DNA of 64,000 nucleotides, taken from positions 6,831 through 70,830 of the forward strand of contig JAHIUU010000006.1 of assembly GCA_018817025.1 (NCBI GenBank). Direction: 5' to 3'. The notes beneath the pieces were generated by a model. The model saw nothing but the letters and a program-made list of their open reading frames with translations. It was not told where the DNA came from and did no database searches. Below, piece by piece: positions 4,401 to 59,841 of the stretch. Source of the stretch: Candidatus Babelota bacterium. Its GTDB lineage: Bacteria; Babelota; Babeliae; Babelales; JAHIUU01. A program made the translations under genes and the position numbers. Numbering within the stretch: position 1 is the first letter of the stretch; the number at the start of each line of letters is the position of its first letter.

Positions 4401-4404
4401 AATA

Positions 4405-5184: not shown

Positions 5185-5315
5185 AACTCCACTATTTGCT
5201 TACGCCCACCATCATTTTTTCTCTGAAAGACTGTGGTATCAATCTGTGGAAGCCCTAACGTTCTTGTGCTATGATTATTCTGCGGTTTTTTCCCTAAAAA
5301 TAAGGATCTGGTTTT

Positions 5316-8002: not shown

Positions 8003-8013
8003 ATTCGTCCCCC

Positions 8014-8619: not shown

Positions 8620-8680
8620 AGCCCCCCCTCTTAAGAACTAGATCAGGTGGAGCCCCGAAGAGCTCCGCCTATATGTAAAA

Positions 8681-9151: not shown

Positions 9152-9206
9152 AAATAACTCCTACCTGTAAGCATTTTACTACAAACTCCTAACACAAAGT
9201 CAATAC

Positions 9207-10460: not shown

Positions 10461-10476
10461 AATTTATGTACCCCTT

Positions 10477-11283: not shown

Positions 11284-11387
11284 TTCAGCTACCCTTTGTA
11301 TCGAAATCCTAGTACGATAAAACAACAAAATATCATGAACAGGTAAAGCCTAGCAGAATTATACGTATACTCAAAGGGAGTGTTGCT

Positions 11388-14136: not shown

Positions 14137-14672
14137 GCTTTCTTCTTTTTCTTATTTTTTCGCAAGACACGCAACGTTCCTCCAAACTCGATCGTTGTAC
14201 TCACCGGATGAATTTCACTACCAACTAATTCGATCTCTTCAGAATCCCACTTTAGTCGCGCATGTTCACATTTGGTCTTCAGCGGCACATCATTCTCTTG
14301 CTCTTTCATTTGCTCAACCAACACATGCCCTCGCAACTCGCATCGCTTCTCTTCAACGAATAACTTAACAACATCAGCTCGAACTTTTTGGTTGTTGCGG
14401 TTCATACAAACATTACTCTTAAAAACAATTTTCTTTGCTTCATTCTTTTTAACAAAAATTTCAAGTGAATCTGCTGAAACAGTACTCGAATCAGCAAATG
14501 TTACATGTACATCATCTCTGTACTGCAAACAAATCATCGATGTATCAAGCCTATCTTTTTGAATTGTCGCGCTTTGACTTTTAACAATCACTTTTGAAAG
14601 AGGATCAACAGAAATCGAAGCCATAAGGGGACAAATAAAAAACAGTAAAAAAATATTAAAGATTTTTTTCAA
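14133..14672 (-). CDS. Periplasmic LptA/OstA-like protein (tentative)
   Basis: It has a signal peptide, and the pattern of repeated beta strands (...ADSLEIFVKKN...RADVVKLFVEEKRCELRGHVLVEQ...) resembles OstA_N/LptA-LptC folds. A Lys-rich tail is present. The start is TTG, and the gene lies between secA and mutL. Confidence 0.35.
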   Translation of the reverse strand: MKKIFNIFLLFFICPLMASISVDPLSKVIVKSQSATIQKDRLDTSMICLQYRDDVHVTFADSSTVSADSLEIFVKKNEAKKIVFKSNVCMNRNNQKVRADVVKLFVEEKRCELRGHVLVEQMKEQENDVPLKTKCEHARLKWDSEEIELVGSEIHPVSTTIEFGGTLRVLRKNKKKKKA

Positions 14673-14698
14673 GAAGATCCTACTTTTAGCTTAGGCCA

Positions 14699-17242
14699 TT
14701 ACCTTCCACAGCATTTCTTGTATTTCTTCCCAGAGCCACATGAACACGGGTCGTTCCGTCCGATCTTTTCTTCGATTCGTTTAACGGTCCTAGAATCTCC
14801 GCCACTCTCATCACCGCCAATCTTGAGAGAATCTAGCTCCTTTTCGTGTTCACTTTCAATCTGATGGAGATGCGACACGGTCAGATCGTCAGGCTTCATG
14901 CGGAAAACCCCTTGGACAACGTCCCACTTAATCTGAGACATCATACTCTCAAAAGTCGAGAACGATTCTTTTTTATATTCGACAAGTGGATTTTTTTGGC
15001 CGTATCCTCGTAACCCAATCCCCTCTTTAATCTGATCAATATTTTGTAAATGAATTCTCCATGCCCGATCAATCGTCTCGAGCAATACCCACTTTTCGGC
15101 TTCTCTAACAATTTCTTGTGTATTACTACGATACTGATCGTAGTAATACACAAGGTAGTCATATATCGCTTTTTCAAGATTAGTTGACGACGATTGGTCA
15201 AAATTCGCTTCTATGAAAGCCTCCTGCTTAACTCCCGTCATCTTCTCGAGAATCTTATACAACTCCACAACATATTCAGGGGCACACTTTGCTTTTGGAC
15301 AATAGATTGAGAACAATCGAGAAAGCCCGTCTGAAAGCATCTCTTTGATCACCTCTTGAATCTGTTCTTCACCATTGAGAACGTCGTGTCTATAGCGATA
15401 TACAACGGTTCGCTGCTGGTTAAGCACATCGTCATACTCAAGCAGATGCTTTCGAATATCAAAGTTATGTCGTTCAACTTTTTCCTGCGCACCCTCAATT
15501 CGTCTCGATACCATCTTGTGCTCAATGCTCTCACCAGGCTTCATTCCAATTCGTGTCATCGTCTTCTTGAGCCGCTCACCACCAAAGATTCTCATGAGAT
15601 CATCATCTAGCGAAAGAAAAAACTTTGATGCACCAGGATCACCCTGCCTACCTGCTCGACCCCGCAGCTGGTTATCAATACGACGACTTTCATGCCGTTC
15701 TGTACCAATAATCTTAAGCCCACCAAGCTCACGAACTCCTTTACCCAACTTAATATCGGTACCACGACCGGCCATATTGGTTGCGATCGTAATCTTACCT
15801 TTTTCACCAGCCTCTTTGACAATATCAGCCTCACGATCGTGCTGCTTAGCATTCAAAACATTATGAGGAATCCCGGCCTGATTAAGCAAATAACTAACGT
15901 ACTCAGAAGTCTCAACCGCAATAGTCCCAACAAGCACCGGCTGACCTCGGTCGTAGCAATCTTTGATATCTTCAACGACGGCCTTAAACTTATCATCCCG
16001 ACTTAAAAATATGGCATCCGACTGATCGTCTCTAATGATAGGCTTGTGCGTTGGAATAACGACCACATCTAATCCATAAATCTTATGGAATTCGAATGCC
16101 TCAGTTTCAGCCGTACCGGTCATACCAGATAGTTTTTTGTATAAACGAAAGTAGTTTTGGAGTGTGATTGTTGCAAGTGTCTGGTTCTCACGCTCGATAC
16201 GAGCACCCTCTTTTGCTTCAAGCGCCTGGTGCAGCCCGTCACTGTACCGACGACCTGGCAAAATTCGTCCGGTAAACTCATCAACGATAAGAACCTCGCC
16301 CTCACTAACAACATAATCAACATCACGTTTGAACAACGTTTGCGCTTTAAGAGCCTGAGTCACGTGATGAAGTGCTAGAATATTTTCAGGAGCATATAGA
16401 TTGCCAACTCCCATATTGTGCTCAACTCTGTCGTGTCCCATTTCCGTCAGCTGAACCGATCGAGACTTTTCATCAATCTCATAATCTTCATCCTTTTTCA
16501 ATGGTAGAACCGCACGATTCGCTGTGAAATACAGATCACTTCCCTTCTCGCTCGGACCAGAAATAATAAGCGGCGTTCTTGCTTCGTCAATCAAAATCGA
16601 GTCAACCTCGTCAACAATAGCAAAGCTCAACTCGCCTTGAGCATAATCTTCTCGATTAAACTTCATGTTATCGCGTAGATAATCAAATCCAAATTCGTTG
16701 TTAGTTCCATAGGTAACATCAGCTCGATACGCCTTCTTTCGCTCAGCGTCGCTCATCTGATTCTGAATAACCCCTATCTCTAGGCCCAGGTGATTGTAAA
16801 CCGGACTCATCCACTCCGCATCTCGCTTCGCCAGATAATCGTTAACAGTCACAAGATGCGACCCCTTGCCAGTCAAACCGTTCAGGTACATTGGCAACGT
16901 TGAAGTTAGCGTTTTCCCCTCACCGGTTCTCATCTCGGCAATACGCCCTTGGTGCAACACAATGCCACCAATAAGCTGTACATCATAGTGACGTTCGCCA
17001 AGTTTCCGACGCGCGGTCTCACGAACAACAGCAAACGCCTCGGGTAAAATGCTATCGAGCGACTCTCCTCGAGAAAGTCGCTCTCTAAAATGATTTGTTT
17101 TTGCAGTAAGATCGAGCTCACCTAGCGCAAGCATCTCTTCTTCAAGTTGATTAATCTTATGAACAATGGGACGCATTTTCTTGAGCTCTCGCTCATTTTT
17201 CGTCCCAAAAATTTTTGAGAGCACTTTTGTAACAAGCACCAT
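14699..17242 (-). CDS. secA: Preprotein translocase ATPase SecA
   Basis: 847 aa with DEAD-like motifs (MRTGEGKTL, VDEVDSILIDEARTPLIISG, TNMAGRGTDI). The C-terminal zinc-binding tail is CSCGSGKKYKKCCG. Confidence 0.95.
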   Translation of the reverse strand: MVLVTKVLSKIFGTKNERELKKMRPIVHKINQLEEEMLALGELDLTAKTNHFRERLSRGESLDSILPEAFAVVRETARRKLGERHYDVQLIGGIVLHQGRIAEMRTGEGKTLTSTLPMYLNGLTGKGSHLVTVNDYLAKRDAEWMSPVYNHLGLEIGVIQNQMSDAERKKAYRADVTYGTNNEFGFDYLRDNMKFNREDYAQGELSFAIVDEVDSILIDEARTPLIISGPSEKGSDLYFTANRAVLPLKKDEDYEIDEKSRSVQLTEMGHDRVEHNMGVGNLYAPENILALHHVTQALKAQTLFKRDVDYVVSEGEVLIVDEFTGRILPGRRYSDGLHQALEAKEGARIERENQTLATITLQNYFRLYKKLSGMTGTAETEAFEFHKIYGLDVVVIPTHKPIIRDDQSDAIFLSRDDKFKAVVEDIKDCYDRGQPVLVGTIAVETSEYVSYLLNQAGIPHNVLNAKQHDREADIVKEAGEKGKITIATNMAGRGTDIKLGKGVRELGGLKIIGTERHESRRIDNQLRGRAGRQGDPGASKFFLSLDDDLMRIFGGERLKKTMTRIGMKPGESIEHKMVSRRIEGAQEKVERHNFDIRKHLLEYDDVLNQQRTVVYRYRHDVLNGEEQIQEVIKEMLSDGLSRLFSIYCPKAKCAPEYVVELYKILEKMTGVKQEAFIEANFDQSSSTNLEKAIYDYLVYYYDQYRSNTQEIVREAEKWVLLETIDRAWRIHLQNIDQIKEGIGLRGYGQKNPLVEYKKESFSTFESMMSQIKWDVVQGVFRMKPDDLTVSHLHQIESEHEKELDSLKIGGDESGGDSRTVKRIEEKIGRNDPCSCGSGKKYKKCCGR

Positions 17243-20080: not shown

Positions 20081-20335
20081 ATGGAACACACAAACGCTTT
20101 TGAATTGGAAATCATAAAACAAACTGAATCGAAAAAAGTTTCTATCCTGTGGGTCGAGATACAAAGCCCAACCGGAAACTTTGTCGTTGGCCCCGAACAC
20201 CACCCGCTTGTCTCGCTTCTCAAGCACCGCGGTAAACTAACCTACAAAGAATACAATGGCAATGAGACTTCTCTCGATACATATGGGGGCATTTTCAAGG
20301 TTGCCAACAACAAAGCAACGGCACTCCTTGATTAG
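20081..20335 (+). CDS. atpC: F-type ATP synthase subunit epsilon, N-terminal beta-sandwich only (84 aa)
   Basis: The gene starts 3 nt after atpD. The sequence (LEIIKQTESKKVSILWVEIQSPTGNFVVGPEHHPLVSLL...) fits the epsilon N-domain. There is no room for the C-terminal helical hairpin. Confidence 0.7.
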   Translation: MEHTNAFELEIIKQTESKKVSILWVEIQSPTGNFVVGPEHHPLVSLLKHRGKLTYKEYNGNETSLDTYGGIFKVANNKATALLD

Positions 20336-47482: not shown

Positions 47483-47713
47483 ATGAAACGTCTTGCCGCA
47501 TTATTTCTCATCTTGGGCCTTATTGGATCCGCTTGCGTCTTAAGTAGCTGCTCTAAAGAAGAAAAGACTATCGCCGGAGCATTAATTGGCGCCGGAGCCG
47601 GTATTGGTATCGGTTCTGCAGCAGGTAATACTGAGGGTGGCGTCATCGGCGGAATTCTTGGCGCCGGCGTCGGTGGACTCATCGGAAACAGCATGGGTGA
47701 CGATAAAGATTAA
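47483..47713 (+). CDS. Small glycine-zipper lipoprotein (Pcp/SlyB-like)
   Basis: AGGAGGG RBS, signal peptide plus lipobox LSSC. The Gly-zipper is GALIGAGAGIGIGSAAGNTEGGVIGGILGAGVGGLIG. Confidence 0.6.
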   Translation: MKRLAALFLILGLIGSACVLSSCSKEEKTIAGALIGAGAGIGIGSAAGNTEGGVIGGILGAGVGGLIGNSMGDDKD

Positions 47714-47726
47714 TACATCATCTTTC

Positions 47727-47759
47727 ATCTCCTGAAGGGTCGCGGCTCCAACACCGCGA
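47727..47759 (+). terminator. Rho-independent terminator
   Basis: GGGTCGCGG-CTCCAACA-CCGCGACCC followed by CTTTTTT. Confidence 0.75.
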
Positions 47760-47805
47760 CCCCTTTTTTCTTGCGAAAAGAACCAGTTCCTGGCAGACTA
47801 TTTCC

Positions 47806-48537
47806 ATGCAAAAATTACTCTCTATCAATAACCTTCATGTTTCTATTAAAGAGTCTGAGATTCTCAAAGGGGTTTCTCTAGAAATAGCCTCTGGCGAAAT
47901 TCATGCCATCATGGGGCCAAATGGGTCCGGTAAGAGCACGCTTGCGCTCACGCTCATGGGACACCCGAGATACGCTATAAACAACGGCTTAATAAACTTT
48001 GACGGCAAAAACCTACTCGCTCTTCCAGTCGAAAAACGGGGTCTGTCAGGAATCTTTCTCGCATTTCAAACACCATTTGAAATAGAAGGTATATCGTTGC
48101 GGGAATTTTTGTATCAGATCTATCTGGCCAAACACCCGGGCTCTGGCGTCACCGAATTCGAAACGCTTCTTATCGAAAAGCTCAAAATACTTAACCTAAA
48201 ACCAAAATTCGTCGAACGACACTTGAATGTCGGTTTTTCTGGAGGCGAAAAAAAGCAGGCCGAAATCCTTCAACTCGCTATACTGCAACCAAAGCTTGCT
48301 ATTCTTGATGAGATCGACTCTGGGCTAGACGTCGATGCCCTCAAAACGGTTTGCTCGTGCATAAACAAAATAAAAGCTACCAACCCAAACCTCACGCTCA
48401 TCATCATCACCCATTATCCGCGTATTCTTAGCTACTTGGTCCCTGATGTTGTTCACATCATGCAAAATGGGACCATCGTACAATCAGGCACAAAAGAACT
48501 TGCTCAAGAAATAGAACGAGGAGGATACTCGTTATAG
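47806..48537 (+). CDS. sufC: Fe-S cluster assembly ATPase SufC
   Basis: Walker A GPNGSGKST and the SufC-type signature NVGFSGGEKKQAEILQL are present, with LDEIDSGLD and the H-loop ITHY. No sufB/sufD is adjacent. Confidence 0.85.
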   Translation: MQKLLSINNLHVSIKESEILKGVSLEIASGEIHAIMGPNGSGKSTLALTLMGHPRYAINNGLINFDGKNLLALPVEKRGLSGIFLAFQTPFEIEGISLREFLYQIYLAKHPGSGVTEFETLLIEKLKILNLKPKFVERHLNVGFSGGEKKQAEILQLAILQPKLAILDEIDSGLDVDALKTVCSCINKIKATNPNLTLIIITHYPRILSYLVPDVVHIMQNGTIVQSGTKELAQEIERGGYSL

Positions 48538-48594
48538 CTCTTGGGCATGAACTCATCGTATAAAAAATTAAAACAGAAAGGTCTTGTCGTGAAT

Positions 48595-49251
48595 ATGAAA
48601 AAAAACTTTTTATTTATTGTATTTATTTTGGTTCTAAATTCTGGCCACCTCACCCCTATGGGCAAAGCTGCTAACGAGAAATCTGATAGCCCGGTTGATT
48701 ACTTTCTCAATCAAGTCTGCAAAATCATTACCAATAACAATCTAACTCATCGCCCAAAAACAGATCTTATAATAGACATTGATATCGAAATAGAAGCACT
48801 ATTCATAGAGCAAGAAAAACTGTTTACCATAGCCCGTGAAACAAGGTGTACGAACACACCCCCGTTACTCAGACGTATGATCGATACATACACAAATCAA
48901 ATTCAACAGCTCTATACCATAAAAAATTTCTTTGATGGACAAATACAATCGGAAATTAGCTTATACCCAACATCTGTGGATCAAAAAAATCATATAAATC
49001 ACTGGTATAAAACCTCGATCATCCAGTGGGTTAAAAAAAGAACACCCCTCATTAAACTTCTCATCTCAAAAAAACGAACTTATATCGCAAAACTCTATGC
49101 CAAAAGATTAAAAACCATACTCAGAACGACCATCGACTTGATTGGTTTTGACTTAAAAACCACGTTCGGCGTTAGGATCCTCAATCTTGACAACAAAAAA
49201 CAAGAGGCTAAACAAGCATTAAATACCTTATCCAACGTTTTTTGCCCATGA
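48595..49251 (+). CDS. Hypothetical secreted protein
   Basis: The ATG at 48595 gives the signal peptide MKKNFLFIVFILVLNSG (the track start at 48541 is TTG). No domain recognised. Confidence 0.35.
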   Translation: MKKNFLFIVFILVLNSGHLTPMGKAANEKSDSPVDYFLNQVCKIITNNNLTHRPKTDLIIDIDIEIEALFIEQEKLFTIARETRCTNTPPLLRRMIDTYTNQIQQLYTIKNFFDGQIQSEISLYPTSVDQKNHINHWYKTSIIQWVKKRTPLIKLLISKKRTYIAKLYAKRLKTILRTTIDLIGFDLKTTFGVRILNLDNKKQEAKQALNTLSNVFCP

Positions 49252-49334
49252 TTTTCTAAGCACTTTACTTCCACAAACTAACCTCTGTACGCTTAAAAGA
49301 GAAAACGTTAAACCACAATCCTGGGGGGGGGACC

Positions 49335-50438
49335 ATGAAGGTGGAACAATATCTCTTTTATCTTTTGTTTTTACTCGTTGGAACGCCAGCACTTCAAAGC
49401 GAAGTGAACCTTAACAATACTGGTGACCTCTTAGCCCAGTCGGCCGTCTCAATCTCGCAGCTCAATCTTCTCCACAACTCTCTTACTGAACTTAACCAGC
49501 AAGCGCCATCGCCAAAGATCGAGGGCGACATCGCTATGATCGAAGCAATTCTCGAGACAATCCAGGTGTCCATTCATGAACTCAACAGCGTAGAACAACT
49601 TGACCTACGACCAAACGACGAAAAAGACAACGAAGAAAACCAACAACCAACCCCTGAACAAATCGTTCAGGCAAACCAACAACAGATCATTGATAATCTT
49701 ATCAATGCAATCGAACAATCAAATGCAACCATTGAAAAATTAACGCGGCCAAACCGATGGAAAAATATAAAAATTGGTATATACCTAGTCTCCGGCACCG
49801 CTGCCGCTATAGGGGTAATCGTCCTTGGCTACCAGGCCTATAAAAAAATAAAATCGTTCTTCATGGCCCCAATCGAGGAGATGGACAAAGAGATCGAACA
49901 ACAAATAAAGGAAGTCTCCAAACTAGGCGACCAATTAACAGAAAACGTCGAAAACCTCAAAGACAATCTTCAACCTATAAAAAAAAGAACAAACGAAATA
50001 AAAAAAGCCGTTAAGGGAGGAATAAAAGTCCTCGATAATGTTCTTAAAAACGACTTTCCCAAACTCAAGGACGAAATTAACGAGAAAATTGCAACATTTC
50101 GAATTCTAGAAGAACTACGCAACATACGATTACGCGAAAAAGAAAAAATAGACGAGCTCGAACAAGAAATAAAGCGCCTGAAAAAACAAACTCAAACAAA
50201 TGATCAAGAACAAAACAAAAAAATCAGCGAACTAAAACAAAAAATGAAACGAGAAAGCTCTCACATGAAAGTTCACAGTCAACGATTGGATCTTTTGCTA
50301 GAAAACGATTTGATCTTAGCCAAGGAGCATTTTTCAAATAGACTTAAACTCTGCGAAGCCAGAGAAAAAATGGGGCTTAACAACTCGCCAATAGAACGAA
50401 CAGAAAATCAGCTAGAGAAGATTGTTGGTCCTAAATAG
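49335..50438 (+). CDS. Hypothetical signal-peptide / single-TM / coiled-coil protein
   Basis: G-rich RBS, signal peptide MKVEQYLFYLLFLLVGTPALQS and a central TM IGIYLVSGTAAAIGVIVLGY are present. The C-terminal half is a K/E-rich coiled coil. Its TAG stop is the first triplet of repeat copy A. Confidence 0.4.
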   Translation: MKVEQYLFYLLFLLVGTPALQSEVNLNNTGDLLAQSAVSISQLNLLHNSLTELNQQAPSPKIEGDIAMIEAILETIQVSIHELNSVEQLDLRPNDEKDNEENQQPTPEQIVQANQQQIIDNLINAIEQSNATIEKLTRPNRWKNIKIGIYLVSGTAAAIGVIVLGYQAYKKIKSFFMAPIEEMDKEIEQQIKEVSKLGDQLTENVENLKDNLQPIKKRTNEIKKAVKGGIKVLDNVLKNDFPKLKDEINEKIATFRILEELRNIRLREKEKIDELEQEIKRLKKQTQTNDQEQNKKISELKQKMKRESSHMKVHSQRLDLLLENDLILAKEHFSNRLKLCEAREKMGLNNSPIERTENQLEKIVGPK

Positions 50439-50470
50439 CCTAGGGCTTCCCGTCATGGGTTTTAAGGGCG
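50436..50470 (+). repeat. Repeat copy A (TAGCCTAGGGCTTCCC...GGTTTTA...)
   Basis: TAGCCTAGGGCTTCCCGTCATGGGTTTTAAGGGCG. The first 16 nt are identical to copy B, and about 28 of the first 34 positions match without gaps. It begins on the TAG stop of the preceding gene. Confidence 0.7.
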
Positions 50471-50502
50471 GGTCACGCCCATCCCAATCCCGTTCGCCTA
50501 GC

Positions 50503-50534
50503 TTGTCCGCCTGCCCCGAGTGTCCTCCGTAGCT
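50503..50534 (+). repeat. GC-rich motif copy 1 (TTGTCC...TGCCCCGAGTGTCC...CGTAGCT)
   Basis: The 14-nt core TGCCCCGAGTGTCC at 50512-50525 recurs at 50629-50642. The flanks TTGTCC and CGTAGCT are also shared. GC content is visibly higher than in the surrounding sequence. Confidence 0.6.
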
Positions 50535-50612
50535 CGAAGAGCGCAATGTCATCAACTTAAGAGATTTGTCCCAATTCTATGACAATGTTATTCTGGTTAT
50601 GATCAATCTCGT

Positions 50613-50652
50613 TTGTCCCGAGCCCGCTTGCCCCGAGTGTCCCCACGTAGCT
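50613..50652 (+). repeat. GC-rich motif copy 2
   Basis: TTGTCCCGAGCCCGCTTGCCCCGAGTGTCCCCACGTAGCT has the same core and flanks as copy 1 with an 8-nt insertion. One frame reads VCPEPACPECPH, compared with SLSACPECPP in copy 1. Confidence 0.6.
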
Positions 50653-50719
50653 TTAGCGTAGTGGGATGTATCGAGGGGTCTAGAAATTCTAAACAGTAAA
50701 CCAGGCCACCAGTTTCGCC

Positions 50720-50747
50720 TTGACATAAAACTTTCCCGTTTCATACT
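50720..50747 (+). promoter_or_regulatory. Candidate sigma70-type promoter of the toxin-like gene
   Basis: Perfect -35 TTGACA (50720-50725), a 16-nt spacer, then CATACT. It lies about 40 nt upstream of GGGAGG and the ATG at 50786. Confidence 0.4.
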
Positions 50748-50785
50748 AAGCCAAGTTTGTATGCTATTTTATGGGAGGTTTTGCC

Positions 50786-51415
50786 ATGAGAGAGCCTATC
50801 TTATATCAAAAGAACATTGTCACGGCCCGCTTGAAGCGGGCTCTTTTTTTTGTCCAAATAATTTTTCTATCTGGCACATGCTTCGCAAATTTTGATCGTT
50901 ACATGACCGCAATTACCCAAGCAAATTGGACCGGTTCTGTTCTTTGCACAAATAATTTGAGATCGTTTATGCGCGAAGGACACGAAACCCTGGGGAGCCC
51001 TGGTTGGGCACAAAGTCAATCCTGCCACACAAACTCCCATAAACAACATGAATTCAAAACCCCACAAAGCTTGCTGGTCAAAAACCATATCAACCCAAGT
51101 ATCTTTTTAGAGTTACAAAACGTTGCCTATCGCAATATGCCAACCGTCCTGAAAAACAAGTTGCCAAGCAAGCTCGTCGAAATGAAACAGTTGTTGCAGA
51201 AGTTTTTCGATAAATTCGATTCCTGCGAAGAATTCAGAAAACACGCTTCTCAGTTTTTACGGGGTTGGAATCTACAAATCGAAAAAAGTCGGCAAGAAAA
51301 AAGTGTTTGGTCATCGCAAAAAAATTCCCGCACTCAAGCACTATGCAGGCCATGCATTCAGAGCCGCCTGCGAAGCAATAAAAAATATAAAAATCTCTTT
51401 GACAACTCTCTGTAA
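50786..51415 (+). CDS. N-terminal fragment of a secreted toxin-like protein (frame 2)
   Basis: GGGAGG lies 7 nt before the ATG at 50786. The product starts MREPILYQKNIVTARLKRALFFVQIIFLSGTCFA (Sec-type signal). The reading is sensible up to ...FLRGWNLQIEKSRQEK, then turns to low-quality sequence where frame 3 becomes sensible. Confidence 0.45.
   Translation: MREPILYQKNIVTARLKRALFFVQIIFLSGTCFANFDRYMTAITQANWTGSVLCTNNLRSFMREGHETLGSPGWAQSQSCHTNSHKQHEFKTPQSLLVKNHINPSIFLELQNVAYRNMPTVLKNKLPSKLVEMKQLLQKFFDKFDSCEEFRKHASQFLRGWNLQIEKSRQEKSVWSSQKNSRTQALCRPCIQSRLRSNKKYKNLFDNSL
50825..50851 (+). terminator. Intrinsic-terminator-like hairpin inside the signal-peptide codons
   Basis: GCCCGC-TTGAA-GCGGGC followed by TC and T8. 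It lies 39 nt downstream of the ATG at 50786, inside the codons for ARLKRALFFV. Confidence 0.4.
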
Positions 51416-52172
51416 CAATCTTCTACAGACTGAGATTGGCGAACCAGCCCGGTATTTTCTCGGTCGATTTATGATGGGGCTCAGTGAATCTGGCATTGAT
51501 ATTCAAACTGTTCTAAAAAAAGAACTCATAGAAAACCGAAGCAACTTTGCCCCAGGATTTCTACAAAAAGTAAAATTTCAATCAGTCAAAGAACGCCTTG
51601 GAGACGTCATACAGCTTCTATCAAGGACAACCGTTCATGCGTCTGTCATCATAGTTTCAGTAGCAGCAACTGCAATAATAATAGAAGCCGGCGTCACAGC
51701 CGCCACGGGAACACTAGGCGCCATCGCCGCCAAAAATTTATTCGAACCACTCGCTCTCAGCATAAATCCAGATGGTACCGCAGCTATAGCGCAAGCGGCT
51801 TCATCAGGTGGTTCCGTATGGCAGGCAATCGCGACCTCAATTGGACAGGCAGCTCAAGCCGTTTATGGAGTTCTAGAACAAACAGGTAATTTCTTTGCAG
51901 CTATCGGTGATGGCAGACAAAAACCACCTTCCACGCCAATAGGAAGAAGGGGGCAACCACTGAATTGCTCTGGTTCCAATTCTGCAAAAATAATTAATGG
52001 TAGAGTCTTTACAGGTCACGCTCTTGATAGAATGCAGGGACGGGGCATAACGCCATCGATAGTTGAAAGCGTCATAAAAAATGGCGTGGCTCTTGCTGGC
52101 AAAACCCCTAGTACAACTGCTTATACATTTAAAAATGTTAAGGTTATTATTAATAATCAGGTGATGTTGTAA
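51303..52172 (+). CDS. C-terminal fragment of the toxin-like protein (frame 3) ending in an HAxDRMxxRGI module
   Basis: This frame is open from 51186. It overlaps the previous ORF across the A-rich tract 51281-51325. It has an Ala/Gly-rich hydrophobic segment (ASVIIVSVAATAIIIEAGVTAATGTLGAIAA). The C-terminus reads ...INGRVFTGHALDRMQGRGITPSIVESVIKNG...VKVIINNQ. Confidence 0.5.
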   Translation: MFGHRKKIPALKHYAGHAFRAACEAIKNIKISLTTLCNNLLQTEIGEPARYFLGRFMMGLSESGIDIQTVLKKELIENRSNFAPGFLQKVKFQSVKERLGDVIQLLSRTTVHASVIIVSVAATAIIIEAGVTAATGTLGAIAAKNLFEPLALSINPDGTAAIAQAASSGGSVWQAIATSIGQAAQAVYGVLEQTGNFFAAIGDGRQKPPSTPIGRRGQPLNCSGSNSAKIINGRVFTGHALDRMQGRGITPSIVESVIKNGVALAGKTPSTTAYTFKNVKVIINNQVML

Positions 52173-52199
52173 CCGTTATACCACAATAGGATTTGTATT

Positions 52200-52484
52200 A
52201 TGAAAGAAAAAAACAAAGAGCACTTGAAAATGATGGTAAAGCAAATGGAAAAATATCAAACAGGTTCGGTAACATTAAAAACAATGCACGAAAATTTATT
52301 GGGGCTATACGAGTCAACTGACCTCCCGAACGAGGCAAAAGAATTCAGTAATCTTTTTCATCAATACTGGGACCAAATTGAAGAAATAATTGCAATCAAA
52401 AAAACAAAACAGTATTTAGAAGAAATTAATAACGTTATAATTCCTGGTTTTAAACAAAAAATTTTAGATTTGATAAAAGCCTAG
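52200..52484 (+). CDS. Small cytoplasmic helical protein, candidate immunity protein
   Basis: 94 aa with no signal peptide. It starts 27 nt after the toxin-like ORF on the same strand. Its TAG stop is the first triplet of repeat copy B. Confidence 0.4.
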   Translation: MKEKNKEHLKMMVKQMEKYQTGSVTLKTMHENLLGLYESTDLPNEAKEFSNLFHQYWDQIEEIIAIKKTKQYLEEINNVIIPGFKQKILDLIKA

Positions 52485-52812
52485 CCTAGGGCTTCCCTGC
52501 AGAGGTTTTAGCGGCAAAATCAATAGCGTGCCAGACAAAGCCTATGACGTTTTGAACATTATAAATGAAACAGGAGCAGCCCCCGACGGATTTAAAGGAG
52601 GAAGACAGTTCTTGAACAATGGGAGAGGGGATGGACAGGCGTTTGTCAAAATTGGACTTTCATGGTCCTCTCCAAGCATAAAAAATATAATTTCGACAAA
52701 CACCTCTTTTGGAAGATCAAACAATATCGGCTTACATAGAGACGGACACTTTTTTTGTTCTTGCATTGAATTCATGGAAAGCAAAAAAAGAACACCTCTC
52801 AATAACTATTAA
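52477..52812 (+). pseudogene. Start-less fragment with barnase/RNase-Sa-like N-terminal motif (orphan toxin module?)
   Basis: The frame is open from 52477 with no ATG (the track start is the GTG at 52528). It reads KPSLGLPCRGFSGKINSVPDKAYDVLNIINETGAAPDGFKGGRQFLNNGRGDGQ.... The x-TL-x-I-x-x-G-x-x-P-x-G-(F/Y)-x-GG-x-x-F-x-N pattern recalls microbial RNases of the barnase/Sa/T1 family. The distal half is poorly conserved, with no obvious catalytic Glu. Confidence 0.35.
52482..52516 (+). repeat. Repeat copy B (TAGCCTAGGGCTTCCC...GGTTTTA...)
   Basis: TAGCCTAGGGCTTCCCTGCAGAGGTTTTAGCGGCA. See copy A. The spacing from TAGCC to GGTTTTA is the same 22 nt. Confidence 0.7.
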
Positions 52813-52913
52813 AAAAATAATAAAAATCGTACAAATAACTTTTTTGATTTTTTGTCCCAAACCCGTTACGTTTAAAAAAGTCATTTTTTCACCTTCTCGT
52901 AAGGGGCGTCGTT

Positions 52914-54299
52914 ATGAACCAATGTACCTTTGTCATCCTGGGCGCAACCGGCGACCTGACAAAGCGCAAACTAATTCCAGCAATGTATCACCTCATAAAA
53001 AAGAACAAAATTAAAAACTTTGCGCTTGTCGGTGCCGCAATCACCGATACAACAATACAAGATGTCTTACAAAAATCTCAAAAGTTTATTCAAAAACCTG
53101 ACCGTAAAGTATGGAAACAGCTTGAACAATCATCATACTACTGCCAACTCGACTTTCATAACCAAAACGATTTTCAAAAACTACAAAAATTACTAATACG
53201 TGTTGAAAAAAAACATAAATTACCAGGGAATCGAATCTTCTATCTCGCAACGCTTCCAGAACACTTCGAAACAATTACCGCAAATCTCTCTAAAAACAAA
53301 ATCGTTCAAAAAGGCAAACAAACGCTCTGGTCTCGAGTCGTATACGAAAAACCATTCGGACACGACTTAAAATCTGCACGAAAAATTAATCGCTGTATCG
53401 CAAAACTATTCGATGAATCTCAGGTGTATCGAATCGACCACTTCCTATTGGAAGAACTCGTCACCAACATCGCCCTCGTTCGATTCTCTAATCTCTTTTT
53501 CGAGCCTCTCTGGAACAATAAATATATAGAATCTGTGCAGATAGTTTTGCATGAAAAAATTGGCATCGAAGGTCGGGGAGCTTTTTACGATCACTACGGC
53601 GCGCTCAAAGACGTTGTCCAAAACCACATGCTTCAGATGCTCGCTCTCATCGCCATGGAACCTCCTAAAAAACTTAGCGGCGAATATATCAGAGACGCAA
53701 AAGTCCGAGTATTAAAAAGAGTACAACACAACGACATTTTACTAGGACAATACAAAGAGTATCAAGACGAACGAGGCGTCAATCCAAAGTCTCGTACCGA
53801 AACTTTTACCGCACTTCGTCTAGAAATTGCAAACAGGCGATGGAAGGGCGTACCATTTTTTTTAAAAACCGGAAAATGCTTATCAAAAAAAGAAACCAGT
53901 ATTCACATAAAATTTAAAAACCCAACATGCCTACAACAAGACTGCCCCGCAGAAAGCAACTATCTCACGATTCAGATTCAACCGCGAGAAGGATTTTACC
54001 TGCAGGTCAACACAAAAATTCCTGGAGAAACGCATAATGTAACACCGGTCAAGATGGACTTTTGTCACGCCTGCCACTTTGGGCCGAACACCCCTCAAGC
54101 ATATGAAACTCTCCTCTCAGAGGTTCTTGAAGGTGACCACTCTGTTTTCGTTCGATTCGATGAGATCGAATATTCATGGAAACTAATCGATAAAATCTTG
54201 GCAAAAAAACACCCTATCTATACATACAAAAAAAATACTGATGGGCCAAAACAGTTAGCTATATTTAATAAAAAAAATAATATCAGGTGGCGAACATGA
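52914..54299 (+). CDS. zwf: Glucose-6-phosphate 1-dehydrogenase
   Basis: The N-terminal NADP motif is FVILGATGDLTKRKLIPA. The active-site region is YRIDHFL. Confidence 0.9.
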   Translation: MNQCTFVILGATGDLTKRKLIPAMYHLIKKNKIKNFALVGAAITDTTIQDVLQKSQKFIQKPDRKVWKQLEQSSYYCQLDFHNQNDFQKLQKLLIRVEKKHKLPGNRIFYLATLPEHFETITANLSKNKIVQKGKQTLWSRVVYEKPFGHDLKSARKINRCIAKLFDESQVYRIDHFLLEELVTNIALVRFSNLFFEPLWNNKYIESVQIVLHEKIGIEGRGAFYDHYGALKDVVQNHMLQMLALIAMEPPKKLSGEYIRDAKVRVLKRVQHNDILLGQYKEYQDERGVNPKSRTETFTALRLEIANRRWKGVPFFLKTGKCLSKKETSIHIKFKNPTCLQQDCPAESNYLTIQIQPREGFYLQVNTKIPGETHNVTPVKMDFCHACHFGPNTPQAYETLLSEVLEGDHSVFVRFDEIEYSWKLIDKILAKKHPIYTYKKNTDGPKQLAIFNKKNNIRWRT

Positions 54300-55207
54300 G
54301 TATTCACAAAAAAAAATATATAGGGTTAGTTGGTCTTGGACGTATGGGACTCGCGATCGCCCATCGATTAATACAAGCAAACTTCACGGTACTAGGGTTT
54401 GACCAAGACAAACAAGCCCGAGAAAAGCTTGAACTGTTGGGCGGTGCCCCCGTCGACGCCATAACAGAGATCCCAAACAAGTGTGACATAATGTGGCTCA
54501 TGGTGCCTGCAGGAAAAGTAATCGATAGCGTTATTGCTCAAATAAAATCCAATGTAAAAGAATCTAGCATTATTATCGATGGGGGTAACAGTCACTTCCA
54601 AGATACCATCAGACGGTCACAAGAACTTGCTAAAGACAACATCTTCTTACTTGATTGCGGAACATCTGGGGGGCTGCGTGGTAGCGATATAGGGTTCTCC
54701 CTTATGATCGGCGGCGACCATAACTCATATAAAAAAGCAGAACCAATTTTCAAAGCTATCGCAGCACCGAACGGCTACGCCTACCTAGGGCCATCTGGCG
54801 CCGGCCATTACGTTAAAACAGTTCACAACGGCGTCGAATATGTAATTCTGCAATCGTACGCTGATGGATTTAATTTGCTCAAACATGGACAATATAAAGA
54901 TCTTGATTTACATAAGATCTCTAAAGTCTGGAATAATGGATCAGTTATTAGATCATGGATCTGCGAGCTACTCGAAGAAATTTTCGCACAAGACCAAAGT
55001 TTTACCGATATTTCTGGCTTTATAGACGAAAACCTTACCGGACAATGGACTATCGAAGAAGCGAACAAACAAAACATATCCATGAAACTCTTGGAAATTT
55101 CGCTCGAAATCAGGGCGCAATCGAGACAAACCGGGGGCGATTATGCAACAAAAATCGTCGCATTACTTCGAAATAAATTTGGCGGTCACGAGGTGAAAAA
55201 AACATGA
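54296..55207 (+). CDS. gnd: 6-phosphogluconate dehydrogenase, short (~300 aa) decarboxylating form
   Basis: Rossmann motif IGLVGLGRMG is present, followed by ...DGGNSHFQDT...DCGTSGG...HYVKTVHNGVEY. The ATG at 54296 overlaps the zwf stop (ATGA). The track start at 54287 is GTG. Confidence 0.8.
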   Translation: MSIHKKKYIGLVGLGRMGLAIAHRLIQANFTVLGFDQDKQAREKLELLGGAPVDAITEIPNKCDIMWLMVPAGKVIDSVIAQIKSNVKESSIIIDGGNSHFQDTIRRSQELAKDNIFLLDCGTSGGLRGSDIGFSLMIGGDHNSYKKAEPIFKAIAAPNGYAYLGPSGAGHYVKTVHNGVEYVILQSYADGFNLLKHGQYKDLDLHKISKVWNNGSVIRSWICELLEEIFAQDQSFTDISGFIDENLTGQWTIEEANKQNISMKLLEISLEIRAQSRQTGGDYATKIVALLRNKFGGHEVKKT

Positions 55208-55824
55208 AAATTATCGATATCAGTTGGCCAATATCTAACGAAATGACAACCTACAAAGACGGAGACGATATCTCTATCGAAAAAATCCAGTCGTTCAAAA
55301 CAAACAGCGTTCGCGAGCACAGGCTATCTATTAGCTCTCATATCGGCACCCATATCGACGCCCCAGCGCACTTTCTACAAGACGGAGCAACGCTCGACCA
55401 AATAGCTCTTGAAACGTTGGTCGGCCCCTGTCGTGTTCTCGATTTCACAAATATAAAAGAACAAATAACAGAAGAAGCCTTGATACCTCACACCATCAAA
55501 ACAAACGACCGAATCTTGCTCAAAACAAAAAATAGTCTTTTATCTTCAACAGATTCTTTCAACTATAGCTTTGTCTATCTCGATGAAACCGGCGCACATT
55601 ATCTTGCCAAACAAAAAGTACGATGTGTTGGAATCGATTATCTTGGTATCGAGCGCTGCCAACCTAATCATAAAAGTCATATCGCACTTCTCTCAAAAAA
55701 AATACCTATTATTGAAGGACTAAGACTCGAGCAGGTAGAACCGGGAAATTACCAACTCTATTGTCTCCCGCTTCTTATACCAGGCCTAGAGGGCTGTCCA
55801 GCACGAGCGGTGCTTATATCTTAA
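55204..55824 (+). CDS. Putative-cyclase / arylformamidase (KynB-like) family metal hydrolase
   Basis: HIGTHIDAPAHF (the HxGTHxDxPxH metal motif) and a C-terminal ...GLEGCPARAVLI are present. The ATG overlaps the gnd stop (ATGA). The 3' end overlaps the aspS 3' end by 11 nt. Confidence 0.75.
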   Translation: MKIIDISWPISNEMTTYKDGDDISIEKIQSFKTNSVREHRLSISSHIGTHIDAPAHFLQDGATLDQIALETLVGPCRVLDFTNIKEQITEEALIPHTIKTNDRILLKTKNSLLSSTDSFNYSFVYLDETGAHYLAKQKVRCVGIDYLGIERCQPNHKSHIALLSKKIPIIEGLRLEQVEPGNYQLYCLPLLIPGLEGCPARAVLIS

Positions 55825-57571
55825 TTCCCAATTCTTTAAGCTGCTTTTTATCAACCTGTGATGGGCTCTGTGTCATCAGGCATGAACCGGTCGTTGTCTT
55901 TGGAAACGCAATAACGTCACGTATAGAATCTGTTTTCGCCAGCGCCATAACCAATCGCTCTATCCCAAGCGCGATGCCACCATGCGGCGGAAACCCGTAC
56001 TGTTGAGCCTCAAGCAAGAAACCAAACTTGTCCTGTGCTTCTTTTTCAGAAATCCCCAATAACTTAAATATTTTTTTCTGTGTAGCAGGATCATAAATAC
56101 GAAGCGATCCACCAGCCAACTCCTCGCCATTACAAACTAAGTCATATGCATGCGCTTTGATCTTAGCAATCTCCTGGTTCTCCCATCCCTTCCTTGGCAG
56201 CGTAAACGGGTGATGCTTCGCATACCAACGCTTATCTGCTTCGTACCACTCCAATAATGGAAAATCGGTCACCCACAAAAAATTATATTTTGACTCGTCA
56301 ATCAGATTGAACGCTTTACCGAGCGCATTGCGTAGTCGACCAAGCGCGGTCCATGCCGCTTGATATGAACCAGCAACAATAAAAAGTGTATCGCCTGGCG
56401 CAATGGTTGGGATAACATCACGAATCTGTTTAAAAAAATCTTCTGGCAAAAGCTTGGAGACAGGCGAATCAAACGATCCGTCCTGCTTAAACGATACCCA
56501 CAACAACCCGCTCGCACCAAAATACTTTTTTGCCTTTTCCTCCCAGCCCTTAAGAGCTGACCGAGAGAATGCTTGATCCTTAACACACAGTGCGCCAATC
56601 TTCCCATTGTCATCAATAACTTTTTTTAAAAACCTGGCATCTGTATTTTCGAAAACAATCGTAATATCTTGAATCTCAAGATCAAATCGCGTGTCAGGCT
56701 TGTCTGAACCAAACCGTGCAAACGCTTCCTCATACTTCATATGTGAAAATGGCAATCTTATTGTTTCACCAAAAACCCGTCTCCACACAGTCTCAACAAC
56801 ACCTTCCATGACACTTTGTACGTCATCCTCATGCACGAACGACATTTCTAAATCAAGCTGGGAAAATTCTGGTTGGCGATTGGACCGAAAATCCTCGTCT
56901 CGAAAACAACGAGCAATCTGGAAATATTTCTCCATGCCGGCGGACATCAAAAGCTGTTTATAAATCTGTGGCGATTGAGGCAAAGCATAAAACGACTCTT
57001 TTTGTAATCGTGATGGAACCAAAAAGTCTCGTGCTCCTTCAGGCGTGCTCTTTGAAAGCAGCGGCGTCTCAATCTCATAAAACTCAAGCTTATTCAGATA
57101 CTCTCGTACCGAAAGAATTACTTCATGACGAAGTTTTATATATTGATGCATCTTGGGTCGGCGTAGGTCGAGATAACGATATTTGAGACGTAAATCTTCG
57201 CACGCCTGTACATCATCTTCAATCTCGAACGGCGGCGTTGGCGAGCTGCTCACAATCGACAAATCAAGAATCGATACTTCAAACGAACCGGTTAATATCT
57301 TTTTGTTAATCGACTCAGGTGACCGCTCGACAACCGTTCCACGAACGGAGATAACAAACTCACTACGAAGCGTATGTGCTTGCTCTGCAAGCTGCTTGTT
57401 CTTCTCAGGATTGAAAACAAGCTGAATGATCCCACTTCGATCTCGCAGATCAATAAAAATAAGGCCGCCTAAATCTCGACGGCCTTGCACCCAGCCACAT
57501 AAAAATATTTCTTTACCAACAAAATCCTGTGACACGTGACCACAATATACTGAGCGTTTAAATAGTTCCAT
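55814..57571 (-). CDS. aspS: Aspartate--tRNA ligase
   Basis: 585 aa, bacterial type with the insertion domain. Motifs FRDEDFRSNRQPEFSQLDLE and GGIALGIERL are present. Confidence 0.95.
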   Translation of the reverse strand: MELFKRSVYCGHVSQDFVGKEIFLCGWVQGRRDLGGLIFIDLRDRSGIIQLVFNPEKNKQLAEQAHTLRSEFVISVRGTVVERSPESINKKILTGSFEVSILDLSIVSSSPTPPFEIEDDVQACEDLRLKYRYLDLRRPKMHQYIKLRHEVILSVREYLNKLEFYEIETPLLSKSTPEGARDFLVPSRLQKESFYALPQSPQIYKQLLMSAGMEKYFQIARCFRDEDFRSNRQPEFSQLDLEMSFVHEDDVQSVMEGVVETVWRRVFGETIRLPFSHMKYEEAFARFGSDKPDTRFDLEIQDITIVFENTDARFLKKVIDDNGKIGALCVKDQAFSRSALKGWEEKAKKYFGASGLLWVSFKQDGSFDSPVSKLLPEDFFKQIRDVIPTIAPGDTLFIVAGSYQAAWTALGRLRNALGKAFNLIDESKYNFLWVTDFPLLEWYEADKRWYAKHHPFTLPRKGWENQEIAKIKAHAYDLVCNGEELAGGSLRIYDPATQKKIFKLLGISEKEAQDKFGFLLEAQQYGFPPHGGIALGIERLVMALAKTDSIRDVIAFPKTTTGSCLMTQSPSQVDKKQLKELGIKI

Positions 57572-57659: not shown

Positions 57660-59675
57660 TTAGAACTTGTATTCAAGCACCGCTTGCGCATAGTACGCAA
57701 CGTCATCACCAAGTCGGTATTTTGATGAAGGAAGATCAGCTTTATCAGCCTCTTCAAGCTTGTTAAAGACATCGCCCTTCAAAGGAACACCCTTGATGTC
57801 CTCGTAGTATGAACCAGGGAAAAAGACCGCGAAGAAACTCTTAATCGAAAGATCCTTCAAAATATCATACTGTGTGATCAAGTTGAACTCAGTTCCCATG
57901 AACTTACGAGCTTTCAAGCACTCAGAAACACCGCCTTCACCTTCATTAAGCGAGCAATCATACTTATTTGACTCATGCTCCTTCCAAAAGAACAACAGGT
58001 TTGAGTTAATCTTGAAGTTATTTTCTTCCCATCTCTTTGGCTCCCAGGTCAAACCAAACCCGAAATGATGCATATCGGTAAATGATGGATCTGATTGCGC
58101 TTCGGTTTCGTTTTGATCTAATGTCAAAGGACGTCTGATCTTGCGAGCATCAAGAATGAAGATACTAGGAACTCGTTTGCCAGAGTATAATTCATACAGA
58201 CCAACAAAACCCTTGTAGTTCTTGTCACACTCAGTCGCATGAGGATTCTTGTCACCAGATGCGAAGCCATATGCAGCGGCAGCCTTAAGGTCTATGCAAT
58301 CAATCAGGTAAGATGCGTCAGCAACAAACATCCAACCACGATAATTGTTTTTGTATGAACAACGATATCGGTCAGCTGCATTTTTAAAACTGTCAACAGC
58401 CCCACCAATAAGCGCCCCTGCTTCACTTGGAGCCCACACTTTATCGTTGTACGAAGAACCACACTGAGCGTTACGATTGTTAATAAGAGAGGTCTCTGTA
58501 TCTGTACCCACGACAACATTTTTGCCGTTGTATTGGGTGGTAGCATCAGGATTTTTTACATAGGTCACATGACTGTACACTTCACGAACAGACTCTAGAG
58601 GCTCTGTGCCATACTTCTCGTTTTTCAAAACAACTCTGTTTCGATCGATTGCGAAAAGTCTTTCGTGACCGTAGTTAACTGCTGCCTCTGCACCAAACTC
58701 AAAGTTCTTTCTTGCGTACTCTAAACCTGCACCAACTGCGCCAAGCATGCTCTTGCTATCGGCATTCATCTCAACCTTTTGGTCGGATGCTTCGTTGTAC
58801 ATGACATACGGTTCCAACTCCAGGGTTCCATACTTTTCGTCTTCAAGAGGCTTGAACTTCAAACGGGCGGCAAACACATCGCTGTCTTTCGCAACACCTG
58901 ACCATGGTGTTCGTCGTCGGCCCAAAACTTTTTCTTTATTTGAGTTGAACACATCACTGAACGTTGCACTCTTGTCTTCGAACTTTGCATAGTAAAGATC
59001 ATACCAGAGGGTATCTTTGACAATTTCACCATTTATTAAAATTCCTGGAGCTGAGTAGTCGGTATCTCTGCTATAGATAGCAAGGAAGCTAGGCGAAACT
59101 AATCCGTAAAACGGACCAAACGCGATACCGCGACCAAGCTGAAATGGGAACATCCCCAGTTTAACCGTGTGGACTTTTTCTGATTCAATGTCAAAAACTG
59201 CATTCAAACTTGCTTTGATCCAAGCGTTTTTAATCCAAACGAGAGGCCGCGTAATTGCATGGCAGTGTTCACCGAGCGCTGCATCAACAACCTTGAACTC
59301 GTCATTCGTTTCTGTTCTTGCTTGATGCCCAATCTTTCCCCAGATTGTCTTGAATCGAAGATCTGTTCCAAGTTCAATTGCTTTGTGCCCAAACTTTTTC
59401 TCTCCGTATGCAAAACCCAAGTCCAAATCAACAGTCTCTCTAAAATGACTGGTCTCATCCGGAAGACACTTGTTGAGCATGACCGCATTTTTTTGGAAAC
59501 GATGTTCCGTAACCGATTTACCCCCGAATGTCCAAACCGTATCACCACGACGAACGGTTAACGCTTGCTTCTCCCCCGCTTCGACCGCCTTCATCTCCCC
59601 TGCTCCAACCGGAGCTCCCGCAAAAGCCACTCCGCTCAAACCAAGCGCAACAACAAAACCGATGGTTTTTCTCAT
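57660..59675 (-). CDS. Large hypothetical outer-membrane beta-barrel protein
   Basis: Signal peptide MRKTIGFVVALGLSGVAFA; the ATG at 59675 lies 6 nt after AGGAG, and the track start is 6 nt upstream. The sequence is rich in alternating aromatic strands. The C-terminal ...AVLEYKF ends in Phe. Confidence 0.45.
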   Translation of the reverse strand: MRKTIGFVVALGLSGVAFAGAPVGAGEMKAVEAGEKQALTVRRGDTVWTFGGKSVTEHRFQKNAVMLNKCLPDETSHFRETVDLDLGFAYGEKKFGHKAIELGTDLRFKTIWGKIGHQARTETNDEFKVVDAALGEHCHAITRPLVWIKNAWIKASLNAVFDIESEKVHTVKLGMFPFQLGRGIAFGPFYGLVSPSFLAIYSRDTDYSAPGILINGEIVKDTLWYDLYYAKFEDKSATFSDVFNSNKEKVLGRRRTPWSGVAKDSDVFAARLKFKPLEDEKYGTLELEPYVMYNEASDQKVEMNADSKSMLGAVGAGLEYARKNFEFGAEAAVNYGHERLFAIDRNRVVLKNEKYGTEPLESVREVYSHVTYVKNPDATTQYNGKNVVVGTDTETSLINNRNAQCGSSYNDKVWAPSEAGALIGGAVDSFKNAADRYRCSYKNNYRGWMFVADASYLIDCIDLKAAAAYGFASGDKNPHATECDKNYKGFVGLYELYSGKRVPSIFILDARKIRRPLTLDQNETEAQSDPSFTDMHHFGFGLTWEPKRWEENNFKINSNLLFFWKEHESNKYDCSLNEGEGGVSECLKARKFMGTEFNLITQYDILKDLSIKSFFAVFFPGSYYEDIKGVPLKGDVFNKLEEADKADLPSSKYRLGDDVAYYAQAVLEYKF

Positions 59676-59841
59676 AATCATCTCCTACTACGTACAACAT
59701 TTATACAAACAACACAAATACGTACAACACAAAAATGCCAATTCATAACGCGAAGACTTGCATACACCGAAGGTGCAACAAAAAACAATAATTGTTTATT
59801 TTCACAGCTTTGTCAACAATAAAGCTTTATTTTCGCGATGT

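Follow-up and report, generated by a model that had tools for sequence, protein, structure and literature searches.

A cyclase-family hydrolase encoded with zwf and gnd in Dependentiae, a candidate 6-phosphogluconolactonase

Candidatus Babelota contig JAHIUU010000006.1 carries, within the 64,000-nucleotide stretch that was analysed (the window), the genes zwf and gnd of the oxidative pentose-phosphate pathway, followed directly by a gene for a hydrolase of the PF04199 'cyclase family'. Homologues of this hydrolase are named 'cyclase family protein', arylformamidase, or kynurenine formamidase in public resources (JGI, UniRef, NCBI). The PF04199 subfamily concerned is almost certainly coupled functionally to the oxidative pentose-phosphate pathway. 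The simplest reading is that the hydrolase is a 6-phosphogluconolactonase (EC 3.1.1.31), and genomic context and active-site composition make this substrate and reaction probable.

The zwf-gnd-hydrolase operon and its third product

Three open reading frames (ORFs) on the + strand, of 461, 303, and 206 amino acids (aa), fill positions 52914-55824. The features of the locus are as follows.

52914-54299, + strand: zwf, glucose-6-phosphate dehydrogenase, 461 aa (PF00479 and PF02781; TIGR00871 505.2 bits, cut-off 400.6)
54296-55207, + strand: gnd, short-form (~300 aa) decarboxylating 6-phosphogluconate dehydrogenase, 303 aa from ATG (PF03446 and PF00393)
55204-55824, + strand: PF04199 'cyclase family' binuclear-metal hydrolase, 206 aa, proposed 6-phosphogluconolactonase
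54296-54299, + strand: ATGA start/stop overlap of zwf and gnd, read from the sequence
55204-55207, + strand: ATGA start/stop overlap of gnd and the hydrolase gene, read from the sequence
55252-55257, + strand: codons Y17-K18, aligned with KynB Trp20-Pro21; a clade signature that does not vary within the Dependentiae and Bacillaceae clades
55339-55371, + strand: codons of the metal-binding motif H46-I-G-T-H50-I-D52-A-P-A-H56, invariant in 39 homologues
55651-55671, + strand: codons of the loop E150-R151-x-Q153-P-x-H156, clade signature in place of the KynB Leu158 loop
55678-55716, + strand: codons H159 to E171 with the remaining metal ligands, invariant and aligned with KynB His161 and Glu173
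52813-52913, + strand: AT-rich non-coding stretch 5' of zwf, presumed promoter region of the operon, from the sequence
55814-55824, no strand assigned: 3' end of the hydrolase gene, overlapping that of convergent aspS (55814-57571, - strand) by 11 bp; end of the operon

The gnd product reached 333.1 bits with NF007161 (cut-off 271) and 311.7 bits with TIGR00872 (cut-off 297.2), and an alternative GTG is in frame with gnd at 54287. At both junctions the + strand has ACATGA, in which TG belongs to the downstream ATG as well as to the upstream TGA (a 4-base overlap). The original prediction, that zwf, a short-form gnd, and a PF04199 hydrolase are joined by two ATGA overlaps, was thus confirmed by reading both junctions, and its coordinates, family calls, and HxGTHxDxPxH motif were all right according to ORF, hidden Markov model (HMM), and alignment checks. 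These overlaps suggest translational coupling of the three genes. Overlaps of 4 bp are frequent in bacterial operons and unremarkable alone; what chance does not account for is that the linkage recurs elsewhere. A promoter and terminator scan of 52100-56200 gave nothing above shuffle expectation. In particular, a consensus scan of 52813-52913 gave no + strand sigma-70-like site above that expectation.

The hydrolase matched PF04199 with 92.2 bits (gathering threshold 23.1) over profile positions 1-141 of 142. The metagenome gene call starts it at Met14, giving 193 aa and missing 13 residues (55204-55242), including the conserved DISWP. As the N-terminus MKIIDISWPI is kept in an alignment with 38 homologues and NCBI protein MBU1007838.1 has 206 aa, the ATG at 55204 is taken as the true start. 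About 2,000 homologues exist, identity being 52% or more throughout the best 120. Bacillus anthracis KynB has the Zn ligands His50, His54, and Asp56, the active-site His60, and His161 and Glu173 (PMC4243253). The H46/H50/D52/H56 region of the hydrolase aligns with the first four of these, and H46, H50, D52, H56, H159, and E171, invariant in 39 homologues, align with the KynB ligand set. An AlphaFold2 model of the hydrolase (predicted local distance difference test, pLDDT, 95.2) has the KynB/isatin-hydrolase fold, with Foldseek template-modelling (TM) scores of 0.94 to 8HMO, ~0.9 to KynBs, and ~0.86 to isatin hydrolases.

Recurrence of the linkage to zwf and gnd

Homologues were counted as linked when the hydrolase gene lay within 3 kb of zwf and/or gnd, and loci were read up to 10 kb on each side. 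A one-genome-per-species homologue scan gave 80 loci, and a metagenome scan seeded with Patescibacteria-type sequences gave 80 further loci. About 56 non-redundant linked loci were found in total. They belong to at least five sequence clades, show at least seven gene orders with two types of gnd, and come from Dependentiae, Patescibacteria, Bacillales, and soil-metagenome clades. Because the neighbourhood is kept while the gene order varies, functional coupling seems to be the cause rather than inherited synteny. The survey of zwf-gnd-cyclase linkage in relatives that the original prediction called for was strongly positive: zwf-gnd-hydrolase occurs in 15 of 16 Dependentiae-type loci outside the window, the Bacillales are linked in 8 of 8 cases, and three further clades show the linkage.

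At 15 of 15 loci with 41-54% identity, gnd is upstream of the hydrolase gene on the same strand, and zwf is also upstream in the same order wherever the contig is long enough (the contig of locus L020 ends before zwf). These loci are labelled as Babeliales/Dependentiae, Patescibacteria, one 'archaeon', and 'Pseudomonadota' or unclassified metagenome-assembled genomes (MAGs). Loci L029 and L065 (39-43% identity) are linked too, and an additional Dependentiae chromosome has the order pgi-zwf-gnd-hydrolase. The common Dependentiae arrangement, according to clustering of neighbour ORFs and Pfam, is glk-pgi-zwf-gnd-hydrolase, so that the way from glucose to ribulose-5-phosphate is complete save for the lactonase. 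Genes inserted between gnd and the hydrolase gene in some loci were considered as lactonases and rejected, as they code for ankyrin proteins, a clostripain-like peptidase, and unknowns. Other Dependentiae (L002, L009-L016, L022) also conserve a DJ-1/PfpI gene, a gene for a 330-370-aa protein with hydrophobic segments, and a transketolase gene near the operon (examples in L002 at 9538-10101, 10856-11959, and 13711-15570); none of these genes is in the window. The 330-370-aa protein (neighbour cluster c4, L002:10856-11959) was considered as a divergent YbhE-like propeller and rejected, since its hydrophobic segments are membrane-like, it has no Pfam match, and the window lacks it.

In Bacillales, the hydrolase gene is beside zwf in 8 of 8 loci, and in seven of them (chromosome or contig) zwf is directly upstream, and a long-form gnd is either convergent or close by. 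The seven contexts are those of Bacillus sp. FJAT-52991, Evansella cellulosilytica, a second Bacillus sp., a contig 98% identical to 8HMO, Lentibacillus, Aeribacillus pallidus, and Paenibacillus cellulosilyticus; 8HMO has widespread orthologues in Bacillaceae. On the Exiguobacterium mexicanum plasmid NZ_CP040675.1 (record positions 47563-55414, L182), hxlA-hxlB-hydrolase-HAD is divergent from zwf-pgi-gndA, and the hydrolase gene lies ~2 kb from zwf. With hxlAB, zwf, pgi, and gndA together, the cyclic oxidative ribulose-monophosphate pathway is complete there except for Pgl, and the annotation of the whole 68.7-kb plasmid includes no pgl. The plasmid is mobilizable, its module is a compact one for formaldehyde oxidation, and an alcohol dehydrogenase is coded elsewhere on it.

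The Patescibacteria-type clade is linked in 14 of 21 loci, and in 7 of 7 of those whose flanks reach at least 3 kb on each side. A clade with the hydrolase gene beside gnd alone is linked in four of five loci. In the soil-metagenome clade, the order hydrolase-HAD-gnd-zwf was found in 10 loci, all those with sufficient sequence downstream. Single cases have gnd-hydrolase-zwf and hydrolase-zwf. Locus L065, from a MAG labelled Gammaproteobacteria, codes for a 786-aa Zwf-Gnd fusion (7585-9945, + strand) with the domains G6PD_N, G6PD_C, NAD_binding_2, and 6PGD, and the hydrolase gene (9986-10612) begins 41 bp downstream of it. The ~210-aa ORF between the hydrolase gene and gnd of the soil clade (L123:8591-9244, L124:3066-3764, L138:8629-9258, L139:1009-1671, L162:2259-2894) has the right size for DevB and was considered as such, but it has HAD-phosphatase-like motifs and no DevB match; the motifs FDIGGVLG... 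and ...VFVDDREQNL are HAD-like by eye. A Cof-type HAD gene follows the hydrolase gene on the Exiguobacterium plasmid, too.

Proposed lactonase activity and rival explanations

In the proposed route, Zwf would oxidize glucose-6-phosphate to 6-phosphoglucono-1,5-lactone, the hydrolase would convert this lactone to 6-phosphogluconate, and Gnd would decarboxylate the latter to ribulose-5-phosphate. By analogy with KynB, a metal-bridged hydroxide may attack the C1 carbonyl of the lactone. The subfamily would then be a non-homologous substitute for the DevB/YbhE-type 6-phosphogluconolactonases. In TM6/Dependentiae, enzymes of glycolysis and of the pentose-phosphate pathway have been described as jointly converting glucose to pyruvate (PMC4776705), so a high flux through Zwf is expected.

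The window and the loci were searched for a lactonase of a canonical type with two probes on six-frame translations, an HMM of four annotated DevBs (from plasmid records) and the single sequence of Escherichia coli YbhE in phmmer. In a leave-one-out control of the DevB HMM, held-out members were recovered at E values of 1e-22 to 1e-39. It gave no match at E≤10 in the 64-kb window or in the hydrolase-bearing loci (~1.9 Mb of flanking sequence), and the YbhE query gave nothing significant in the window or loci, as a single-sequence query being less sensitive than the DevB test. The statement of the original prediction that the window has no DevB/Pgl or YbhE-type gene was borne out by these searches. 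Pfam evidence for the window consisted of scans of ORFs and of precomputed families for the last 19 kb; the families of Pgl, SMP-30 lactonase, tryptophan dioxygenase, and kynureninase were absent from the window ORFs scanned. A canonical lactonase was a neighbour in 0 of the ~56 hydrolase-linked loci.

DevB adjoins zwf or gnd in four of seven zwf-bearing plasmids (a small, non-systematic sample). One of them, from Thermus thermophilus, carries the operon zwf-gnd(short)-DevB, whose stops overlap; a canonical lactonase thus sits there in the third slot, the one occupied by the hydrolase in the window. The idea that a cyclase-family hydrolase replaces Pgl is supported by the linkage survey, by the lack of canonical pgl near the loci, and by DevB in the Thermus slot, and it is the reading we favour. 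On the Fischerella plasmid AP018300.1 (L094, locus 2416-5913), tal-gnd-zwf is followed by a gene for an 'alpha/beta hydrolase fold protein' in a frequent position of pgl; this protein may be another non-canonical lactonase candidate.

The composition of the active site bears on the substrate. KynB has a hydrophobic substrate pocket of Trp20, Leu158, and, from the partner subunit, Val40 and Val42 (PMC4243253). By alignment, the Dependentiae counterparts are Y17-K18 for Trp20-Pro21, V36-R37-E38 for Val40-Asn41-Val42, and E150-R151-x-Q153-P-x-H156 for the Leu158 loop. The Bacillales proteins have Y-K and E-R-x-Q-x-x-H as well, and the other linked clades have differing yet basic loops, e.g., S-x-K-Q/K-x-G-S-x-D-x-R. 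Judged from the aligned residues, such a polar, cationic pocket would suit an anionic sugar phosphate.

That the gene is a genuine KynB/arylformamidase and only by chance a neighbour of zwf and gnd is extremely improbable, although TIGR03035 (arylformamidase equivalog) is the best NCBIfam match, the metal ligands are identical, and JGI/UniRef homologues carry arylformamidase or kynurenine formamidase names. The window protein scored 135.5 bits with TIGR03035 and all linked clades 122-163, against a cut-off of 223.05, while the B. anthracis KynB control, taken from PDB sequences, scored 327.5. Identity to the solved KynBs is 27-32%, the hydrophobic pocket residues are replaced, and linkage to zwf/gnd at ~56 loci cannot be chance. 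No tryptophan 2,3-dioxygenase or kynureninase was found in the window ORFs scanned or among the annotated neighbours of related loci, and to this extent the original prediction that kynurenine-pathway genes are missing nearby held. Dependentiae are, besides, described as host-dependent and without complete amino-acid biosynthetic pathways (PMC4776705). The hydrolase is not a kynurenine formamidase and falls in a distinct subfamily with 8HMO, 1R61, and 3KRV. A non-catalytic or regulatory partner of glucose-6-phosphate dehydrogenase seems just as improbable. It has a model in OpcA, the product of a conserved gene downstream of zwf acting as an assembly or activator protein, but the six metal ligands and many pocket residues of the hydrolase are invariant across phyla and 8HMO was crystallised with bound Mn, which is the conservation pattern of an active enzyme.

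Most of the probability left over by the lactonase reading goes to lactone-related repair or to a broader aldonolactonase/esterase activity. 6-Phosphogluconolactone is a reactive electrophile, and the hydrolase might serve the pathway in damage control, either by hydrolysing the gamma-lactone isomer or, in an amidase reaction, by removing 6-phosphogluconoyl adducts of amines. The linkage evidence for this is identical to that for the lactonase, KynB and isatin hydrolase, relatives of known function, are amidohydrolases (PMC4243253), and other Dependentiae keep a DJ-1/PfpI-family gene nearby. We consider it unlikely, as the operons resemble minimal pathway sets short of exactly one step (glk-pgi-zwf-gnd-X, or hxlAB-X with zwf-pgi-gnd), Thermus has its main lactonase in the same slot, and a repair enzyme would be expected alongside pgl, none of which was seen nearby. 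It is similarly doubtful that the subfamily extends beyond a stand-in lactonase, as damage control retained where most glucose runs through Zwf. If damage control were true, it would mean a new metabolite- or protein-repair activity and not a new fold for a known step. Equally unlikely, in our opinion, is an action on a different ester or lactone of a sugar or sugar phosphate (e.g., general aldonolactonase or phosphoesterase activity), with the link to zwf/gnd due to shared carbohydrate regulation. A homologue in Chloroflexi/Actinomycetes MAGs comes after genes for glucose dehydrogenase and a glycogen-debranching enzyme, which suggests unphosphorylated gluconolactone as substrate; an HAD phosphatase adjoins the hydrolase in two linked contexts, and the superfamily contains the phosphotriesterase 8F9X. 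The partner, however, is specifically zwf and/or gnd, in at least seven gene orders and with two gnd types, including the Zwf-Gnd fusion. A general aldonolactonase would also hydrolyse 6-phosphogluconolactone, and this explanation therefore overlaps with the lactonase one. The MAG contigs concerned (L038, L045, L049, L059; e.g., L049:6935-10633) are closely related, and on them a Glu_dehyd_C glucose dehydrogenase, the debranching enzyme, and, last, the remoter PF04199 homologue are coded on the same strand.

Several points weigh against a 6-phosphogluconolactonase. A canonical pgl may be present elsewhere in the genomes, the search having covered the window and flanks of up to 10 kb, and the lactone hydrolyses spontaneously, so a missing pgl need not be filled. 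A gene kept beside zwf may also code for something other than a lactonase, as that of OpcA does, and transfer of the operon as one unit could explain part of the linkage. Neither zwf nor gnd lies within 8 kb of a Dependentiae homologue that is 58% identical (L005:8001-8627); this homologue adjoins a guanylate kinase gene, has the full Y-K and E-R-x-Q-P-x-H signature, and is the sole unlinked member of the core clade. The pocket signature also varies among linked clades, the Patescibacteria-type proteins having Y-P and S-x-K-Q/K-x-G-S where others have Y-K and G-x-E-R-x-Q-P. A publication describing 8HMO was not found in full-text literature searches, and a different published activity is possible. 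Finally, many remoter subfamily members are unlinked, e.g., those of Pyrinomonadaceae (L023-L082; e.g., L030:221-1024 and L060:4469-5614), which are syntenic with menaquinone genes of the futalosine pathway. The Pyrinomonadaceae homologues had been considered as true KynB controls linked to kynA/kynU and were rejected as such, their neighbours being these menaquinone genes instead. As they are not beside kynurenine genes, the name 'arylformamidase' may be wrong there, too. Their neighbours include VitK2_biosynth, a CofH/MqnC-type radical SAM protein, a thioesterase, and YbjQ.

If the lactonase reading is true, the hydrolase represents a third, structurally unrelated 6-phosphogluconolactonase family beside DevB and YbhE, and a metal-dependent one. 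It would supply the lactonase step that automated reconstructions lack in Dependentiae, some Patescibacteria, many Bacillales, and several uncultured soil lineages, where the proteins are named 'cyclase family protein' or, wrongly, 'arylformamidase/kynurenine formamidase'. It would also give a function to the three orphan crystal structures 8HMO, 1R61, and 3KRV, and correct the kynurenine-pathway calls to which such proteins give rise in annotation pipelines. For Dependentiae, described as catabolising glucose by the pentose-phosphate route (PMC4776705), it would be a central step of energy and NADPH supply. Literature searches gave no prior paper tying PF04199 to Pgl and none on zwf-cyclase operons; the reaction and the superfamily are both known, and their combination has not been described before.

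Elsewhere in the window, two tandem PEBP-family paralogues lie beside a thioredoxin gene, with thioredoxin reductase 11 kb away (7454-8619, 8681-9151, and 20332-21264, all - strand); thioredoxin and its reductase likely consume NADPH made by the operon. The ORFs upstream of zwf (48541-52812, + strand) have no Pfam family or only a weak DUF4258 match (51303-52172), and a 673-aa ORF downstream (57660-59681, - strand) has a signal-peptide-like N-terminus and no Pfam match. All of these ORFs look like lineage-specific proteins. GC skew over positions 1-64000 is negative in all 2-kb bins but one (about -0.08 to -0.30) with genes on both strands, and the whole window is therefore apparently on one replichore.

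Comparison with known systems

The closest structures are 8HMO, a Mn-containing 'metal-dependent hydrolase' of Bacillus smithii, and 1R61/3KRV of Geobacillus stearothermophilus, which belong to the same subfamily with 39-45% identity and TM 0.87-0.94. Their profile scores are 227-246 bits, compared with 124 for KynB, and they share Y-K, K-T-K-N-S, and G-I-E-R-x-Q-x-x-H with the hydrolase. Bacillales orthologues are also coded directly downstream of zwf. They differ in pairing with a long-form gnd on the opposite strand and in having T37/R40 where Dependentiae have R37. The PDB titles of these structures carry no assigned function, and 3KRV was still termed uncharacterised in 2017 (PMC5341072).

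The solved KynBs (PDB 4CO9, 4CZ1, 4COG, 4COB) have the same fold (TM ~0.9) and identical metal ligands. The hydrolase is set apart from them by the low identity and the TIGR03035 score below cut-off noted above, by a largely polar/basic pocket in place of Trp20, Leu158, Val40', and Val42', and by other genomic partners.

PF04199 already contains a metal-dependent carboxylesterase (MGS0169) and a trans-dienelactone hydrolase, that of Pseudomonas reinekei MT1 (PMC5341072), and a structure search added the phosphotriesterase 8F9X to the superfamily. These enzymes and the isatin hydrolases have metal-dependent hydrolysis of esters, lactones, or lactams in common (PMC5341072), but they are only 14-22% identical to the hydrolase, are larger, in some cases have a modified motif, Q-x-x-x-Q-x-D-x-x-x-H, and act on hydrophobic substrates.

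DevB/Pgl/SOL-type lactonases (PF01182) would share the proposed reaction and, in the zwf-gnd(short)-pgl operon of Thermus, have the same slot; zwf-pgl neighbourhoods were also found in Vibrio, Ralstonia, and Shewanella. DevB is metal-independent and has no sequence or fold relation to the hydrolase, which the DevB HMM does not match. The YbhE/YkgB-type lactonases (PF10282), beta-propellers of ~330 aa with an unrelated fold, would again share the proposed reaction, and they are themselves a precedent for a non-orthologous replacement of Pgl.

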